A DNA stretch of 12,945 bases from a virus (Duplodnaviria > Heunggongvirae > Uroviricota > Caudoviricetes), in IMG/VR virus record IMGVR_UViG_2778261277_000020, positions 1 through 12,945 of that record; one strand, given 5' to 3'. A program made the translations under genes and the position numbers. Below the pieces are notes generated by a model. That model was not told where the DNA came from, searched no databases, and was given only the letters and a program-made list of their open reading frames with translations. Shown here piece after piece: positions 1 to 12,945 of this stretch (its first letter is position 1; each line of letters starts with the position of its first letter).

Positions 1-1026
1 TTACTTGGAATATTTTCTTGGAATATTTTCAGGTAACGGGACATCAAGTGTTGGTGAAACTTTAACCTTCCTGTCATAGATTAGCACTTGCCCTTCGGTT
101 TTGTGACCAGAGAAAAGTTGCTTATCCCGGCTGCTTCCTTCATAGTCTGAAATTCCTTTCGCCTTCAGATCATGAAAGGTGAAGTCGGTTAAAATACCTG
201 AAATTTTGCCTGCGCGATTTCTTGCTTCTACCCACATTTCGTTAAAGCCTTTGTACATATATCGGTTGCCGTATTGATTGCTGATTACATAGGCGGATGT
301 TGGTAACTGTTTTGCTTTTTCGATCGCCGCCTGTAATCGTGGACTCCATGCTTTTATCTGTTTTTTCCCTGTTTTCCCTTGCTGGATAAAGATCCCGTCG
401 TTTCCAATCTGCTCCCATTTCAGCGATAACACATCGGAAACCCTCGCTGCACACAGATAGGCAATTTCCATTGCGATAAAAACAGGAAGAGGTGCAACGC
501 TTAATACTGCCTGGTATTCTTTGTCGGTTACATATCGTTCGCGGTTTTTGGCCTTGAATTTACTTACACCTGCACATGGGTTACCCTTCACGTACCCTCG
601 CTCATACCCCCAACTGTAAACGCGGGACATACTGCTTTTTTCATGGTTGGCTTGCGTTTTACTCTGTTCCCCTCTCTTGTCCATGTATCGACGGATGTGT
701 TCTGGTTTTATGGAATCTGCCGGCACCTTACCGAATACGGCAAGCAACTTTTTTTGATGTTGCAGATAATCTTTTTGTGTTCTTGGACTGAGGTCACTGT
801 AATAGGCGCTGGCGAGGAATTTTCCCCACAAACGACCGAATGTCATTGCGCGATCGCGATTATTTACAGTTTCCTCATACTTTTTCCATAAAGCAGCTAA
901 ACCATCCTTGATGGCGGTTAGTGTGACAGATTCTCTGGATGTTGGTTTCCATACATAACTATATTTATTTGGGTATACATTTGGAGGTAGTTTTTCGTGT
1001 TCAGGATTTTTCCTTCGTCTTCCCAT
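1..1026 (-). CDS. int: Phage integrase, tyrosine recombinase of the lambda Int family (complete, 341 aa)
   Basis: Full-length minus-strand ORF; N-terminus MGRRRK... resembles lambda Int N-terminal arm-binding region; C-terminal part has H/R/Y-containing segments (FHDLKAKG, GHKTEGQVLIYDRK) typical of the catalytic domain; start codon overlaps the xis stop (TAATG). Terminal position in a leftward operon, as in lambdoid phages. Confidence 0.9.
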   Translation of the reverse strand: MGRRRKNPEHEKLPPNVYPNKYSYVWKPTSRESVTLTAIKDGLAALWKKYEETVNNRDRAMTFGRLWGKFLASAYYSDLSPRTQKDYLQHQKKLLAVFGKVPADSIKPEHIRRYMDKRGEQSKTQANHEKSSMSRVYSWGYERGYVKGNPCAGVSKFKAKNRERYVTDKEYQAVLSVAPLPVFIAMEIAYLCAARVSDVLSLKWEQIGNDGIFIQQGKTGKKQIKAWSPRLQAAIEKAKQLPTSAYVISNQYGNRYMYKGFNEMWVEARNRAGKISGILTDFTFHDLKAKGISDYEGSSRDKQLFSGHKTEGQVLIYDRKVKVSPTLDVPLPENIPRKYSK

Positions 1027-1287: not shown

Positions 1288-3672
1288 TTAAAAATCAGCC
1301 TGACTCGGGATCAGTTTTTGCCAGATAACTGAAACGTATTTTGCCTGGTAACGGGCGTCATCAAGTGCATTATGGCGCTCACCTTCGAATGGAATAGCCG
1401 TTCTGGCATCGAAGTCTATGGCTTTCCCCAGCTCAACGATTGTGCGTACATCGCGATCGTTGTGGTAGCGCCACGGGCAGGGGATCCCCTGCCGTTCATA
1501 TGAACGGCGTAAAATTACGTTGTCGAAGTTGGCTCCATTTCCCCAGACCTGAACAAAAAATTCACCGGAGTTTTCGGCGATAAATTCCCGCAATTGCAGT
1601 AGTGCATCATCTAACGGGATTTCATCGGTCAGAATGGTAGATTGCGCCTCGCGTGATTGCTTAAGCCACCATTTAATGGTGCCACGATCAATGACTCCGC
1701 CAGCAGTATCCAGATCGATGGTCTTACTAAATTCCGGTCCCATATCTCCGGTTTGCGGATCGAAAAATATTGCACCTATTGAGATAATCGGCGCATCAGG
1801 ATTTTTTCCCATCGTTTCAAGGTCGATCATTAGATGGTCACACGTCCTGCTGGTGGATGTGATAACGTGATGACCATTCACCGTAATTAAGGGATCTGTC
1901 GTCTCGCCAGTTTCACTATCGCTGGCGTGGTCCTGAGCGCTGCCAGCATTCTCCTTGTGTGGATGTTCAGCGCCTTCCATTTCCTCCGGATCTTTTTCCT
2001 GAGCTTCAGCCTGATTTTCTTTATCGAATGTTTCCTGGTATGTTGCGTCGCCCATCACTGCGCCACAATCAGGGCAGTTGCCTCCTCCCGGCTGACCGCA
2101 GGTATCGCAGACTTTCTCCTGCACAGGTTGATTTTCGACGTCGCTATTTTCCGTTTTTTCGACTTCATCTGAGAGGATTTGATGGCCGGGAATCCATTTC
2201 GGATCATTCGGGTCGCTAATCCCTTCAACAAATTCTCCGCGAGAGGCAGCCAGCAACTTATCGGCGTCAGGCTGGCTGACGTTTGCTGCCTGCATAATTT
2301 TGTTTACTTCGTTAGCGGTAACTTTTACCTGATTGACGGGATTTACCTGTGACTGAGCATCCAGCGGCTGCGTGTCCTGATGATGTTCAGTTGCATCCGG
2401 TTCCATTGTTTCAGCCGCTGCCTGTTCACATGCCATTGCGCCAGATGGTTGCGGTTTTTCTGCATCATTTTTTTCTTCTTCTGTTTCTTGCCCGGCAGCC
2501 AGCTCGCGGTTTATTTCTTCCAGAATATCTTTTTCCGGTGTATGTCGGGCAGCCGTGAGTGTTTCCTGGCTGGGGTTCTCGTGATCAGTCTCCGTTAAAT
2601 GGGCGTTGATATACCCCTGAAGGCGTCCCGGGTAGTGATAAAATTCAGGGTGTGCGCTTCGGATAAGTGCAAAAATAGCGGCGCGAGAGTAGTCCAGGAT
2701 ACCCGGGGTTGAGCGAAGTGCTGCTGACCACTCCCTGAACGGACTTTCTTTCTTCCGGACGATTTCTTTTGCGCGGCGATAAACGCTGCCAGGAATGTCA
2801 TAAATATTAAAATCCATCGGAAGCGTGGCTGCTGCAATCTCCAGATCCAGTGTATCGAGGGTGTGTACTAAATCCGGATTACGATCGGTTTTGTTTCCGC
2901 CTCCGGCATTTGCACCGGAAGCCGTACGGGTGATACGCGAAACACGATTTCCTTTCATCCACTCTTTTGTCAGCAGGCCGCGATCGGTGTAGTCAGCGTC
3001 CAGGTATGCTTCGAAAAAAGCAGTCATTAATCCCAGACTGGAATTAACGGGATTAGGGAAAACTTTGTCAGTGTCGCGAACCAGTTTGTGGTGGTCGCGA
3101 AGTTCCAGTGGGTCGAGCAGGCTGGTTTTGTGCGAAATAGCCAGGGCAGTAACTGCCGGTAGCTCTTCAGCCCGAGCGATATGTAATGCCTGAAGTTCAT
3201 CTCTTGAAACGTGTGTTACTGGTTTTTCGCTGCCGTGTTGAGCAAGCCAACGGATTGCCACCTCCTGACCGGAAACTGGCAGGAGCATGCTCTCCTCAAT
3301 CTCCGTCATGTCTTCGCCGTTAACATTGGTATTTTCGGTGCTGGCTGGTTTGTTCTGCACAGAGGGAGATGGCGCGGTGAATACCATTGTGATGCCATCT
3401 TCACCGCCTTTTTCATAGCGGTTACAGAATTCGGTATCAAACACGCCTTCTGGTGGAAGGTCATTCACAACAGGCAAATGGACGCGAACAGGTTTTTTAA
3501 AGTCCTCTTCGTCGTAACCAGCATCATCCATTGCGACATTACCGCGGGAAACTGCAACAGATAATTTTTTTGCTGTAGTCCAGTAAAAACCTCCTTTAAT
3601 ACCGAGACGTTTTCTGACTTTGTCATTTTTGGCTTCGTAATGGAGTGCAATGTCTTGTTTGTCAGTGCTCAT
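1288..3672 (-). CDS. Exodeoxyribonuclease VIII-like protein (794 aa): RecE-like N-terminal/central region fused to a C-terminal DEDDh (DnaQ-like) 3'-5' exonuclease domain
   Basis: ATG at 3672 with GAGG 9 nt upstream. Central segments ([57 protein letters not shown], Cys-x2-Cys...Cys-x2-Cys [17 protein letters not shown]) match my memory of the E. coli Rac RecE N-terminal region. The C-terminal ~180 aa carry DEDDh motifs (MIDLETMG; [10 protein letters not shown]; HNALDDARY). Confidence 0.8.
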
Positions 3673-5078: not shown

Positions 5079-5244
5079 GATGGCAGCCTCCGCGATGAAT
5101 TTAATTAACTCACCACCAGAGGTGCTAATCTCATGGGTGGTGAGACGCACAGGGTTAGCACTACCGGTCATCACGGAACCCGGCCAGCCTTGCGGCTGCC
5201 CTGCACGCCTCACCATAATGCGAATGTGGCTGTGCTTAACGCAT

Positions 5245-5267
5245 AAAAAAACCGCCTGAGCGCGGTT
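5245..5267 (-). terminator. Minus-strand intrinsic-terminator-like hairpin (6-bp stem AACCGC / GCGGTT, 6-nt loop) followed by U7
   Basis: Plus-strand sequence AAAAAAACCGCCTGAGCGCGGTT at 5245-5267; on the minus strand this is stem-loop plus TTTTTTT. Confidence 0.5.
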
Positions 5268-5948
5268 ATGCGCCGTGATTGACTTCGGGGTGCTAATCCC
5301 GGCACCCGTTTTATGAGGTGCAGATGAACTATAATTCCACCCGTACTGGTTTTCAATAGCTACATTCAACATTTTCTCTTACCCTTCATCACCGAAGTGA
5401 ACTTTGTTGATGCAGTGCCTGGTGCCTCCAGGTGACGTTAACCAGTTAACAATTAACGCCGGAATACAGAAGTATGCCCGTTACGCCCCGTAAAAGACCA
5501 CTTTACGGTTTTAACTGTTCCGCGTGCGCTTAGCCGCATTCACCGCATCACAAAATTCACTTTAAAAAGGGTGGCAGAGCAGTCACGGAGTAGAACTGAT
5601 GCCACCAAAGACTACACATGGGTATTGTGGCGGGGCTGTCACTTAAGCGTATGGTCAACCTGACAACCCGGTGCATTTTCTGGAGCAATGGAGGAAACCC
5701 CAGCCATACTTACCGCCGCGCCATTTCGCGGATTGCCACAACCGGAAGCGCACGTTCGAGGAAATCTAACGACAAGCCTTCTAAGGGAAAGAGCTTCGCC
5801 GTACGCTTTCGCGTTATGCCCTGACTTTTCAGGGAAATATCCTTTCAGTAAACTGTCAGTACCGGATTCTTATCCGTGTCCGGCGCACGACCGCACGTGA
5901 CAGCGTGTTGGTCTCCATTTTTAACCCAGAACCTCAATGGAGGATAAA

Positions 5949-8932: not shown

Positions 8933-9003
8933 CTCGCAATATTCATACCGGATCACTTCCGGCAATTTGTGAGTAAAAAGATTCGGTATCAGAAGAGGTG
9001 AGT

Positions 9004-10044
9004 ATGGCTAACGCCTGGCTCAGATTATGGCATGACATGCCAAATGATCCTAAGTGGCGAACAATTTCCAGGGTGTCAGGACAGCCAATCGCAACAGTGA
9101 TGGCTGTGTATATCCACCTTCTGGTGAGCGCGTCACGAAATGTCACGACATGTCACGGCGTGTCACTACGTGGTCACATTGATGTCACGACGGAGGATTT
9201 AGCAAGTGCGCTTGATGTGACGGAAGAGGTAATTGATTCAATTTTACAGGCAATGCAGGGGCGGGTACTTGATGGAGATTTAATCTCTGGATGGGAAAAA
9301 CGCCAGGTACTGAAAGAGGACAATGGCAACGTTTCACAAACCGCGAAATCCCCGGCAGAGCGCAAGAGAGCGCAGCGCGAGAGGGAAAAATTACGAAAAC
9401 AGAATGAGGGGGGGCATGACGAGTCACGCATATGTCACGACATGTCACGACGAGTCACGACAGATAAAGATACAGATAAAGAATTAAACCCCACACATAA
9501 CGCGCGCGTGCGCGAGAGTGCTCCGACCAGTGAGTCGAATGGCGTGCCGTTGCAGGCAGCGGAACCTGATTACCTGGAAGGCCTGAGCGAACCCATCGGG
9601 AAATTTCCGATGACTGATGGCTGGCATCCGTCGCCGGATTTTCGACGGCGGGCAGCTCTGTGGGGAGTGGCTCTGCCGGAGCCGGAATTTACACCAGCTG
9701 AACTTGCCGCCTTCCGGGACTACTGGGCAGCGGAGGGTAAAGTTTTCACACAGGTTCAGTGGGAGCAGAAATTCGCCCGTCACGTAAATCACGTCAGGGC
9801 GCAGGTTAAACCAGTCAGCAAGGGGGGGAACCATGCAGCAGCACCAGGTGGCACCGCATCACGGGCAGTTCAGGAAATTCGGGCAGCACGTGAGCAGTGG
9901 GAACGTGAAAACGGATTTATCAGCGACGGAAACGGCGTGGAAGCTGTGGGAACTCATGGGGGAGGTTTATTCGAACCGCTGGACCCAGAAGAACGGGGCC
10001 GCACCTTCGAAGCTCTGGATTGCACAGATTGGTGCGATGACTGA
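9004..10044 (+). CDS. Replication initiator, lambda O-like (YdaU / DUF1376-type N-terminal domain), 346 aa
   Basis: ATG 9004 with AGAGG 5 nt upstream; N-terminus [36 protein letters not shown]; two iteron clusters inside the gene, as for lambda ori within O. Confidence 0.7.
9132..9190 (+). repeat. Iteron cluster 1: six direct repeats with GTCAC core at about 10-11-bp spacing
   Basis: CGTCACGAAA TGTCACGACA TGTCACGGCG TGTCACTACG TGGTCACATT GATGTCACGA read directly. Confidence 0.6.
9423..9482 (+). repeat. Iteron cluster 2 (four (T/A)GTCACGAC repeats, 10-bp spacing) followed by AT-rich direct repeat CAGATAAAGA x2: probable origin core
   Basis: GAGTCACGCA TATGTCACGA CATGTCACGA CGAGTCACGA CAGATAAAGATACAGATAAAGA read directly; iterons plus adjacent AT-rich tract is the classical lambdoid ori layout. 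Confidence 0.6.
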
Positions 10045-10510
10045 GCAGCAAATCCGACAGGTCTGCCGCCAGTGCATGGACCGCTGCCGGGCGGGTGAAA
10101 CATGGCCTCCGGACCTGGCTGAGTTTGTGGCGCTGATTTCGGAGAGTGGGGCAAATCCATTCGGTCTGACGGTGGATGCTGTGATGGAGGAGTACCGCCG
10201 CTGGCGCAACGACTCCTGGCGATACGACGGAAGCGATAAATACCCGTGGTCTCAGCCTGTGCTGTATCACATTTGCCTCGAGATGCGGGCAAAAGGGGTT
10301 GAGCGTCAGATGACCGAAGGGGAGTTAAAACGACTTGCAGAACGGCAACTGGCGAAATGGGCAAAACATGTTGGTATGGGCCTGAGTGTTCCGCCTGTCC
10401 GGCGACAACTGGCTGCACCAAAACGCCCGTCGGGACCAACGCCAGTTGAGTTGCTGAAACAGGAGTATGAACGCCGGAAAGCGGCTGGTTTTGTTGGAGT
10501 TGAGAAGTAA
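9833..10510 (+). CDS. Replication protein, lambda P-like (helicase loader), about 225 aa; start uncertain
   Basis: C-terminal half ([40 protein letters not shown]...[16 protein letters not shown]) resembles lambda P as I recall it. ATG 9833 has a G-rich SD (AGGGGGGG, 4-nt spacer) but implies a 212-nt out-of-frame overlap with the O-like gene; alternative starts at 9956 or 10037. Confidence 0.6.
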
Positions 10511-11303: not shown

Positions 11304-11318
11304 TTGCCGGAGGCGCTT

Positions 11319-11741
11319 ATGGCAAAAGTATTTACACAAGAAGAGCGGGAAAAAATTAAAGGGCAGGTGGTTGAACTCGTGCGCCAGAGCGGTCGTGAGA
11401 CGTTACGGCAACTGGAAGCCAAGACAGGTGCGACAAGATATCTGATGAGCGTTCTCGCCAGAGAGCTGGCTGCCAGTGGCGATGTATACAACTCTGGTTA
11501 CGGGTTATTCCCGTCTGAACAGGCGCGTAAGGACTGGCAAAATGCCCGTAAAAAGCTCTCAAGGGCAAAGCTGAAGAAACCATCTGCGGTTGATCCGGAC
11601 CTTATCTGGTCATTACCAGACGGAGAAATACGTCGCTACGACAGTCGCCTAAACATAATCTGTCGCGAGTGCCGGAAGAGCGAAGTTATGCAGCGTGTAC
11701 TGGCTTTCTATCAGGGTAATTTTCAGGAGGCGGTACTGTGA
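11319..11741 (+). CDS. Hypothetical protein (140 aa)
   Basis: ATG 11319 with GGAGG 5 nt upstream; no recognised motif. Confidence 0.55.
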   Translation: MAKVFTQEEREKIKGQVVELVRQSGRETLRQLEAKTGATRYLMSVLARELAASGDVYNSGYGLFPSEQARKDWQNARKKLSRAKLKKPSAVDPDLIWSLPDGEIRRYDSRLNIICRECRKSEVMQRVLAFYQGNFQEAVL

Positions 11742-11798
11742 GTGAAATTAGCTATCAGGCTTCAATTACCGCTGGCATTCGCATCAAAGGAGAGGAGC

Positions 11799-12155
11799 AT
11801 GGAAATAAAACCAGAAGATGAGTTAAGCAATATCGTTTTATTTCCGGTAAAAGAGGATGACCCTCGTAATCAGGTTAATTTTCTTTATGAGCCATCGGAA
11901 AGACCATATTGCCATCACGCTTCTGTCCGGGTTGACGAAAAAGAGCGTCAGGTCCGCTGTAAAATCTGCGGTGCAGTTGTGGAGCCATTTGACTGGATGC
12001 TCTCTGTGGCGAAAAGAGAAACCAGACTGGCAGATGATGTAAGGCTATTGCGCCAGGAGGAACAGGAAAGACGGAAAAATATAGAAAAGTTAATTCAGAT
12101 TGAGCGTAACGCGAAAGCGCGGATACGCAGGGTGACAAAATCCAGAACTGAATAA
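11799..12155 (+). CDS. Hypothetical protein (118 aa) with Cys/His cluster (CHH...CKIC), possible zinc ribbon
   Basis: ATG 11799 with AAGGAGAGG upstream; C-terminal half charged and helical-looking. Confidence 0.55.
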   Translation: MEIKPEDELSNIVLFPVKEDDPRNQVNFLYEPSERPYCHHASVRVDEKERQVRCKICGAVVEPFDWMLSVAKRETRLADDVRLLRQEEQERRKNIEKLIQIERNAKARIRRVTKSRTE

Positions 12156-12250
12156 TTAAATTTAGCACTGTTAAAAATTCGATCCTTAACCGGAGGGATT
12201 TCTGCACCCTCAGAACATCAGGAGGCCGCCCGAAAGGGCGGTAACAAATA

Positions 12251-12727
12251 ATGCAAGAAATCAAAGAAAATATCAGGCAACAGCTTTACGGGTTTTATAT
12301 TGCTTATGATTTGTGGCTGAAGAACGGGGCAAAACCCGGCGGAGTGTTTTCTCAAAATTATGGTTTATGCGCCAATCTTTTCGATTATCTCACATTAATT
12401 GGTACCCCCTGTGAGGCAGCGCTGGAGCAATTACACGCTGATTTCAGAAGTGCCGGGCTGAATGAGGCGTTGCCGTTTAACGAGGGTAAAGAGCATTACC
12501 ATGAAGAAAGAGGGCACAACATGTGCCATATGAATCCGGCACGAGTGGCGTGGGTCAGGGCGCAGACAGGGCAGCCAGCGCCGGAAGGACTGGTTAAAGC
12601 GGTGCGCTTCTATGAACAGGTTAAGCGTGAAAATCCGCCAGTCGAAACCGGAGCATGGAAAGACGCTGTTGACTGGGTTCTCGAAGAGGCTTGTCAGGCT
12701 GTAAACATTCGCATCAAAGGAGAGTGA
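12251..12727 (+). CDS. Hypothetical protein (158 aa)
   Basis: Long ORF with consistent coding look; GGAGG lies 25 nt upstream, separated from the ATG by a GNRA-loop hairpin. Confidence 0.6.
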   Translation: MQEIKENIRQQLYGFYIAYDLWLKNGAKPGGVFSQNYGLCANLFDYLTLIGTPCEAALEQLHADFRSAGLNEALPFNEGKEHYHEERGHNMCHMNPARVAWVRAQTGQPAPEGLVKAVRFYEQVKRENPPVETGAWKDAVDWVLEEACQAVNIRIKGE

Positions 12728-12729
12728 GA

Positions 12730-12945
12730 ATGCAAATTTCACCGGTTACTCTTCGTGTTGCGAAGGCGTTTATATCCAGACATCACCGACACAATAAACC
12801 ACCTGTTGGGCATAAATTCAGCATTGGTCTGATAAATGATGCCGGAGAATTGATAGGTGTGGCGACAGCTGGTCGACCTGTTGCACGACATTTGGACGAT
12901 GGATTAACGCTTGAAGTAAATCGCACATGTACCACAGGAGAACGC
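12730..12945 (+). CDS. Hypothetical protein, 5' part only (runs off the right edge)
   Basis: ATG 12730 preceded by AAAGGAGAG; open frame to the window end (MQISPVTLRVAKAFISRHHRHNKPPVGHKFSIGLINDAGELIGVATAGRPVARH...). Not in the ORF track because no stop lies within the window. Confidence 0.45.
   Translation, partial: MQISPVTLRVAKAFISRHHRHNKPPVGHKFSIGLINDAGELIGVATAGRPVARHLDDGLTLEVNRTCTTGER

Follow-up and report, generated by a model that had tools for sequence, protein, structure and literature searches.

The window analysed here, 12,945 nt of the IMG/VR virus record IMGVR_UViG_2778261277_000020 (Caudoviricetes), is the left half of a lambdoid/Rac-like Escherichia coli prophage and carries, at two gene junctions about 930 bp apart, an exact 19-bp direct repeat, CATTCGCATCAAAGGAGAG. 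Both copies are instances of a widespread gene junction of ~31 nt, GCTGG-CATTCGCATCAAAGGAGAG-TGA-N-ATG, referred to below as J. This junction encodes the tail (A)GIRIKGE and the stop codon of an ead/Ea22-like gene, and also supplies the Shine–Dalgarno (SD) sequence AAGGAG, located 6–7 nt ahead of the ATG of the next gene, with 1–2 nt between stop and start. With a probability of about 0.7, J represents a short conserved boundary, or linker, sequence, combining translational coupling with ~30 bp of homology for the exchange of gene cassettes.

The 19-bp repeat and the distribution of J

The sequence CATTCGCATCAAAGGAGAG occurs in the window exactly twice, at positions 11776–11794 and 12706–12724, both on the plus strand, which agrees with the preliminary description of this DNA; a third match is absent from the window, even with up to 3 mismatches tolerated. 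The claim of that description that such a repeat is very unlikely to arise by chance was also supported, as none of 200 dinucleotide-preserving shuffles of the window gave two matches, with a mean of 0.01 matches. An ATG is located 4–5 nt past each copy (ATG 11799 for copy 1 and ATG 12730 for copy 2). Beyond the 19-mer, the flanks of the two copies can be aligned for only ~6 nt downstream (GAG, then ATG). The preliminary description did not see that the motif is the 3' end of a gene family, ea22.

An exact scan of IMG/VR with the 19-mer matched at least 120 contigs. In the IMG/VR matches listed, the reading frame of the 19-mer is constant: an open reading frame (ORF) ends with ...(A)G-IRIKGE, usually followed by TGA, one base and the next ATG. 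In the sampled occurrences, J lies at a gene boundary and contains the last 7–8 codons, the stop, the SD sequence and the next start codon. The stop codon is lost in 37 of the 124 sampled occurrences (~30%), where 9 further residues are read, and this stop-less variant is always found ahead of the zinc-ribbon gene. The ORFs upstream of J encode 100–390 aa. The Pfam domain Ead_Ea22 was detected, always above the gathering score, in nine of ten representative upstream ORFs with mutually unrelated C-terminal regions, and is located in the N-terminal half or the central part of these ORFs; the tenth ORF encodes a Mom-like/XF1762 protein.

The 3' end of phage lambda ea22 is identical (GCTGG + CATTCGCATCAAAGGAGAG + TGA), and the same GCTGG + 19-mer + TGA forms the 3' end of hkaG in phage HK620. 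With the 31-nt version of the junction, matches were obtained in 386 phage records, including lambda, Stx1 and Stx2 phages, HK620, HK633 and P22-like Salmonella phages, as well as P7 and other P1-like phages, phiV10 and D6; the motif is present in Rac-like phages, too. J is present in 3068 of 5426 complete E. coli genomes, at ~6700 places in all, with a median of 2 and a maximum of 11 places per genome. The temperate phages with ead/Ea22-like genes ending in J comprise lambdoid, Rac-like, P22-like and P1-like phages of E. coli, Shigella and Salmonella. The record of phage P27 labels J as a ribosome-binding site.

In phage P7 (AF503408.1, 88986–89018), J ends the Ea22-like gene upf88.3, and it is similarly located in other P1-like plasmid prophages; plasmids hold 415 of the J places in E. 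coli. J is therefore a cassette junction common to lambdoid phages and P1-like myoviruses.

DNA of phage lambda, at an identity of 99.5% or more, was found in 31 of 46 species-representative assemblies with the 19-mer (loci L163–L208), on short low-coverage contigs or on contigs of ~48.4–48.5 kb, in unrelated organisms, e.g., Streptococcus, Streptomyces, Shewanella, Pseudomonas and Bacillus. This lambda DNA is evidently contamination, and the species-genome scan was rejected as uninformative for the taxonomic range of J.

Conservation of J between reassorted flanks

The 60-nt segments upstream and downstream of 161 occurrences of the motif (up to 2 mismatches, with enough flanking sequence) were clustered at 75% identity. 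The 17 upstream clusters and 26 downstream clusters are joined in 63 distinct combinations, with up to 8 partners per cluster. Column conservation, calculated with one representative per combination, is 0.9–1.0 from position −4 (CTGG) to position +25 (TGA-N-ATG), with two variable columns inside J, namely, T at −3 (0.75) and the spacer of TGA-N-ATG at +22 (0.62). Beyond −4 and +25, conservation is at the background level of ~0.3–0.5, the drop occurring right after the ATG.

A degenerate scan for IRIKGE-stop, blind to codon choice, showed identical codons in 105 of 122 matches, and most of the remaining matches contain single synonymous changes. Among unique contexts, comparisons within families show differences at 1.6% of J third positions; for the 30 codons just upstream of J, 10.8% of synonymous codons differ in within-family comparisons, and between families the 90 nt upstream of J differ at 0.685 per site, which is near random. 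Since synonymous sites are near-invariant, J is conserved at the DNA level beyond coding need. A weaker preference at the protein level, R-A-A-G, reaches a few codons upstream of J.

Homology breakpoints

Phage matches to lygF stop between 11715 and 11760, and matches to the zinc-ribbon module (ArgO145, several Stx2a phages and Ro157c2YLVW) begin at 11770/11771, 5–6 nt before copy 1. Matches to phage genes of the ead/Ea22-like type cover only 12581–12727/9 and stop directly after copy 2. Local BLAST against all fetched loci gave 51 starts of high-scoring segment pairs (HSPs) at 11769–11772 and 32 HSP ends at 11793–11794. For a synthetic junction composed of the left side of copy 1 and the right side of copy 2 (J1/J2), matches start at J or up to 8 nt upstream of it where various Ea22-like genes precede the XF1762 gene. 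Homology with the XF1762 cassette of strain CFS3313 begins exactly at 12706. A second cluster of breakpoints is located at ~12243, directly past a hairpin: 24 HSP ends fall at 12243, and phage matches end at the same position.

The preliminary description had proposed a conserved junction or linker marking module exchange, and this interpretation holds: the 19-mer is found widely in lambdoid phages and across phage groups, homology to other phages begins or breaks off there, unrelated genes are brought together around it, and the two sides of each copy have different nearest relatives.

Gene junction at copy 1

Copy 1 had been described as an intergenic sequence containing the SD sequence of the following gene. 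The SD sequence AAGGAG of the zinc-ribbon gene is indeed part of J copy 1, but the copy is not intergenic, being located within a 27-codon ORF, here named mini-ea22 (VSEISYQASITAGIRIKGEEHGNKTRR*), in a frame identical to that of copy 2. What mini-ea22 retains of an ead/Ea22-like gene is, on the 5' side, the SD sequence AGGAGG, the start codon GTG and the first ~8 codons and, on the 3' side, the J tail. The TGA stop of lygF overlaps its GTG start (GTGA, 11738–11741), and the last 23 nt of mini-ea22 are also the first 23 nt of the zinc-ribbon gene.

The first 25 nt of mini-ea22 differ at no more than 5 positions from the beginnings of full-length ea22-like genes (GTG-S-E-I-N-Y-Q-A-L-R-E...), in which ORFs of 135–315 codons begin with that GTG (one is truncated at 61 codons). 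J is located 386–1350 nt downstream in the full-length genes vs. 38 nt in mini-ea22. On this comparison, copy 1 is better read as the end of a putative ea22 relic with an internal deletion. The ORF of the 27-codon relic is intact in ~25 other loci.

The segment between lygF and J copy 1 was also considered as a 3' extension of lygF, but its match to ea22 5' ends favors the internally deleted ea22 gene; in phage records this segment occurs only together with lygF. In the IMG/VR contig L027 (at ~10007), a 1-nt difference (+1 frameshift) fuses the relic in frame to lygF, and the product is a 172-aa LygF ending with ...AGIRIKGEEHGNKTRR.

The start of the zinc-ribbon gene is ATG 11799 and not the upstream in-frame GTG 11742, because the sequence upstream is not conserved where a full ea22 gene precedes, and the 357-nt form is annotated in RefSeq for relatives. 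In phage ArgO145, the full-length Ea22-like gene gp18 precedes the same zinc-ribbon gene, likewise with a 23-nt overlap, and homology to the window starts only at 11770. The backbone consisting of lygF, the relic, J and the zinc-ribbon gene is common and was found in 1037 genomes at no less than 80% of an 800-nt probe, including CFT073.

Gene junction at copy 2

As described previously, copy 2 encodes NIRIKGE, the C-terminus of the upstream 158-aa protein, followed by the TGA of its gene. No Pfam match was found in the 158-aa ORF, and the Ead_Ea22 domain is absent from both J-bearing ORFs of the window, the 27-codon relic and the 158-aa chimera. The PHROG matches of the 158-aa ORF are split between residues 6–108 and residues 90–157. 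The last 145 nt of the gene are shared, at 90–95%, with genes annotated as ead/Ea22-like, and the same C-terminal domain ends a 260-aa Ead_Ea22-positive protein in locus L059. A link of these ORFs to the ead/Ea22 family is indicated by shared ends and domains, namely, the lambda 3' end, the C-terminal domain in L059 and the 5' end of the mini-ORF. An intragenic mosaic joint is located at 12581–12584 in the 158-aa ORF, where local BLAST against the fetched loci gave 31 HSP starts.

The XF1762 gene, which follows copy 2 and is cut by the window end, terminates in relatives with ...STTGIRIKGE and has another exact J at its 3' end, 494 bp past copy 2.

Arrays of J and insertion of a J-flanked cassette

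The complete arrangement from lygF to XF1762 is rare, being found at no less than 80% coverage in 13 of the 5426 complete E. coli genomes, with a best identity of 98.8%; parts of this stretch are matched in 4320 of these genomes. The closest relative, AVS0790 (98.8% identical), contains three exact copies of J, spaced by 930 and 494 bp. A third J is probably located just past the end of the window, after the Mom-like gene, and the 930 bp between the two copies in the window are one two-gene unit in an array whose units are delimited by J. A spacing of 494 bp from J to J, that of the XF1762 unit, was found in 7 IMG/VR loci, and other loci contain 2–3 direct copies of J, 843–1401 bp apart.

A single genome, that of strain CFS3313, contains the synthetic junction of copy-1 left and copy-2 right in full (98.6% over 290 nt); the order there is lygF, J, XF1762, J and zinc-ribbon. 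Although the junction expected of a deletion is present, this gene order argues against a simple product of deletion between the two copies of J. Because XF1762 is followed by the zinc-ribbon gene, the cassette was inserted into the lygF–J–zinc-ribbon backbone. Comparison of CFS3313 with phage 640R1, which has the common backbone, showed a clean 494-bp XF1762 insertion at the copy-1 site; ~40 nt, including J, match both ends of the insertion, and no bases are extra or missing. Such a geometry would be expected of homologous exchange in J. The insertion could result from two crossovers or from the integration of a J-containing circle.

Proposed mechanism and alternative explanations

As read from the sequence, J is a module of translational coupling, ending the upstream ORF with ...GIRIKGE-stop and setting a strong SD sequence before the next ATG. 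Since the SD sequence in J is ahead of whatever gene is downstream, any cassette landing there would be expressed. J also offers ~30 bp of homology, because it is identical in many otherwise unrelated contexts, and its ~31 bp of identity could serve as a homology patch for exchange mediated by RecA or by a phage recombinase of the Red type. Through crossovers in J, gene cassettes would then be swapped, inserted or deleted, both inside one phage and from phage to phage. In the ea22 gene, replacement of the C-terminal domain may take place between two homology arms, the conserved 5' half and J; with downstream genes, J may provide the left arm. Overall, J is rather likely to mediate the exchange. 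That it causes exchange, beyond marking it, is what we infer, and this view is strengthened by the 494-bp insertion flanked by duplicated J.

Several points weigh against this interpretation. The comparative pattern could result partly from selection keeping only recombinants that preserve the junction. A homology of ~31 bp is at the lower limit for efficient recombination; ~30 bp is the minimal homology for both RecA and Red (Martinsohn et al., PMC2327257). The breakpoints at ~12243 and 12581–12584 are not located at J, and J is therefore not the sole route to mosaicism in this region. The 161 loci used for clustering were chosen for containing the motif, so that the 19 core positions were selected and only the flanks and the extension of the conserved island are unbiased. 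Many of the contigs are closely related E. coli prophages, and the occurrences are not independent events.

According to the strongest alternative, which nevertheless appears unlikely, J is kept only as a region of translation initiation and coupling, while random illegitimate joints are filtered by selection, as in the Hendrix/Juhala model, and J marks the exchange without mediating it. The position of the SD sequence and the close spacing of stop and start fit this view, as does the lack of structure at J: its fold is no better than that of shuffled sequences at either copy (z = +0.4 and +1.2), which suits an accessible ribosome-binding site. The nearby joints at 12243 and 12581 without J also agree with it, and, according to reviews, boundary sequences are not found at most phage joints (PMC3029335, PMC3233612). 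However, the invariant 10–15 nt upstream of the SD sequence (GCTGGCATTCGCATC) are not needed by it, yet are equally conserved, including synonymous sites. The CFS3313 insertion, with identity of J length at both ends and no bases gained or lost, bears a signature of homology dependence, and the same 494-bp J-to-J unit is present in different contexts.

A more far-reaching and quite improbable possibility is that J-delimited units, such as the 494-bp J-XF1762-J unit, are mobile cassettes, in which recombination between two copies of J would excise small circles capable of re-inserting at any J of a phage or prophage residing in the same cell. Lambdoid, P22-like, Rac-like and P1-like phages would then share a homology-driven, integron-like network for accessory genes, and GIRIKGE would be a tolerated or co-opted scar of every cassette protein.

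It is improbable to a greater degree that the conserved element is the peptide ...(A)GIRIKGE, a functional C-terminal tag of Ea22-like proteins (e.g., for oligomerization, partner binding or proteolysis) captured by other proteins, with DNA identity resulting from this function and recent spread. At the ORF end, the motif is read in the same frame in nearly every occurrence, the Mom-like protein and the mini-ORF included, which is consistent with a peptide function, as is the R-A-A-G preference upstream. But synonymous sites are near-invariant across families whose neighboring DNA cannot be aligned, the peptide is not always C-terminal, as shown by the stop-less variant, and it is retained on the 27-codon relic lacking a domain. 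In addition, the nuclear magnetic resonance study of lambda Ea22 names no contact of the C-terminal-domain dimer interface beyond V162 (PMC10834534).

It is very unlikely that a dedicated, site-specific recombinase or nuclease acts on J in a cassette system of the integron-like or homing type. The fixed short sequence bounding cassettes, the recurrence of the 494-bp unit and the HNH endonuclease genes sometimes present in the same arrays would agree with such a system, but at J no inverted repeat, fold or Rfam match was found, and no recombinase gene is consistently linked to J. Moreover, J is located inside coding sequence and in phage groups with unrelated recombination genes.

An RNA element at J was also rejected: the only Rfam matches of the window are at 5133–5620 on the minus strand, there is no fold beyond that of the shuffles, and a promoter/terminator scan at J found nothing.

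Finally, a chance repeat or a footprint of local tandem duplication, the latter considered in the preliminary description, is excluded despite two direct copies 930 bp apart and downstream starts that look alike (MEIKP/MQISP, a resemblance outside the conserved element), given the expectation of 0.01, the unrelated flanks, the downstream genes, which diverge as described earlier and belong to different families (phrog_1621 and Mom-like/XF1762), the position of each copy at the 3' end of a different ea22-type gene, and the presence of the motif in hundreds of phages in other contexts.

Gene content and other features of the window

The genes of the window are arranged in the order integrase, exonuclease VIII-like protein, Rha/Ash antirepressor, ParE toxin, CI-like repressor, YdaS/Cro, YdaT, O-like and P-like replication genes, DUF1627 protein, lygF, zinc-ribbon gene, 158-aa ORF and the 5' part of the Mom-like/XF1762 gene. 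The features related to J are listed in Table 1.

Table 1. Location of J and of the genes and features related to it in the window.
Feature	Position	Strand	Characteristics
Integrase	1–1026		Ordinary phage integrase at prophage end
lygF (DUF977/Ren-like)	11304–11741	+	Pfam DUF977, E = 2.5e-30; phrog_142
mini-ea22, 27-codon ORF	11738–11821	+	GTG 11738 to TGA 11819–11821
Junction J, copy 1	11771–11801	+	GCTGG + 19-mer + GAGC-ATG; stop-less variant (GAG-GAGC-ATG)
Zinc-ribbon gene, 118 aa	11799–12155	+	phrog_1621, E = 1e-55
GC-rich hairpin	12224–12242	+	GCCGCCC-GAAA-GGGCGG, without T-run; in 95-nt spacer preceding the 158-aa gene
Chimeric gene, 158 aa	12251–12727	+	Non-Ea22 N-terminal domain, 12251 to ~12580; Ea22-type C-terminal domain and J tail, 12581–12727
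Junction J, copy 2	12706–12732	+	19-mer + TGA + GA + ATG; end of 158-aa gene, SD and start of Mom-like gene
XF1762/Mom-like gene, 5' part	12730–12945	+	phrog_1384, E = 8e-21; weak Pfam Mom match; cut by window end

The fold of the region 12150–12255, which includes the hairpin, has z = −2.25. Rfam matches above the gathering score were found on the minus strand for C4 antisense RNA (5133–5220), isrK (5245–5321) and DicF (5569–5620), forming a prophage small-RNA cluster adjoining the Rha/Ash antirepressor gene. The O-like ORF (8998–10044) and the P-like ORF (9833–10510), both on the plus strand, overlap by 212 nt in different frames, and both match phrog_15931 (482 positions), the O-like ORF at 1–347 and the P-like ORF at 281–482. 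This suggests a protein that is fused in other phages and is split here by a frameshift, as a pseudogene, or through a mis-called start. The 794-aa protein encoded at 1288–3672 on the minus strand contains an N-terminal exonuclease VIII (RecE-like) segment and a C-terminal Rv2179c-like 3'–5' exoribonuclease domain; the ORFs scanned did not include a RecT-like partner.

Significance of J and comparison with known systems

The origin of phage mosaicism is debated between targeted homologous exchange at short linkers and random illegitimate joints filtered by selection. J is an unusually clear and abundant linker candidate: it is carried by lambda and by over half of the complete E. coli genomes, occurs in dozens of combinations and flanks one insertion on both sides. 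With it, the linker model can be tested directly in a standard system. J also explains why ea22-like genes and their neighbors are frequently mis-annotated or chimeric; the 27-codon ea22 relic, for example, is treated by annotation pipelines as intergenic DNA or as an N-terminal extension. J would not surprise a phage genomicist, yet it is a clean and experimentally tractable case.

The linker concept reportedly goes back to Susskind and Botstein (1978) and Botstein (1980), and "boundary sequences" are said to have been described in HK620 by Clark et al. (2001). Short conserved boundary or linker sequences of lambdoid phages have been proposed (PMC3029335, PMC3233612, PMC2327257, PMC2839356), and Clark et al. 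(2001) are cited for module exchange via short conserved flanking sequences (PMC2327257). Like such linkers, J is short (~30 bp), is located at a gene boundary and at breakpoints, and is conserved amid differing modules; conservation amid unrelated flanks, the position at a gene boundary, and breakpoints coinciding with J while modules reassort were all found for it, and in HK620 itself, hkaG ends with J. Unlike them, J includes the final codons of the genes of a single family, ea22, and its range extends past lambdoid phages (to P1/P7-like, phiV10 and Rac-like phages). Neither the string "IRIKGE" nor a description of J was found in the searchable literature, outside of which stands Clark et al. 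(2001), possibly listing the motif. The concept is thus known, and J is a newly documented example of it, for which a prior listing in that work may exist.

Mosaic ea22 variants of Stx phages have been published, with C-terminal sequences dissimilar except for one 16-aa segment; a shared tail or junction is not mentioned there (PMC10834534). The ead/Ea22-like family (PF13935) is similar to the genes considered here in the 3' end of lambda ea22, and the Ead_Ea22 domain combined with unrelated C-terminal domains fits the mosaic organization of these genes (PMC10834534). The two J-bearing ORFs of the window differ in lacking this Pfam domain, one being the 27-codon relic and the other a chimera with only the Ea22-type C-terminal domain.

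Cassettes of integrons are similar to J-delimited units in forming arrays of promoter-less single-gene cassettes with a recurring site, read from an upstream promoter. However, attC sites, which are imperfect palindromes, fold as single strands for recombination by the integrase, whereas J, located within ORFs, has no inverted repeat, palindrome or linked integrase and folds no better than shuffled sequence, and the integrase of the window is an ordinary phage integrase.

The promoter-stem-loop (PeSL) cassettes of T4-type phages (Arbiol et al. 2010, PMC2839356) also contain repeated short regulatory sequences flanking accessory genes. Both PeSL and J are proposed linkers for insertion, deletion and exchange that keep an incoming gene expressed, possibly via small circles. 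PeSL elements, found in lytic phages, are intergenic transcriptional units and consist of a promoter and a terminator hairpin, in contrast to J, a translational junction, which consists of stop, SD and start, is partly coding and has no secondary structure.

A further comparable case is the gene 67/68 junction of the mycobacteriophages Island3 and Brujita, where an inserted gene shares the C-terminal ~18 residues (50 bp) of the upstream gene, which has been read as recombination between short repeated gene ends (PMC3029335). The same geometry is seen in the J-XF1762-J unit; the mycobacteriophage junction is a single case in one phage pair, whereas J is population-wide and joins dozens of partner combinations.

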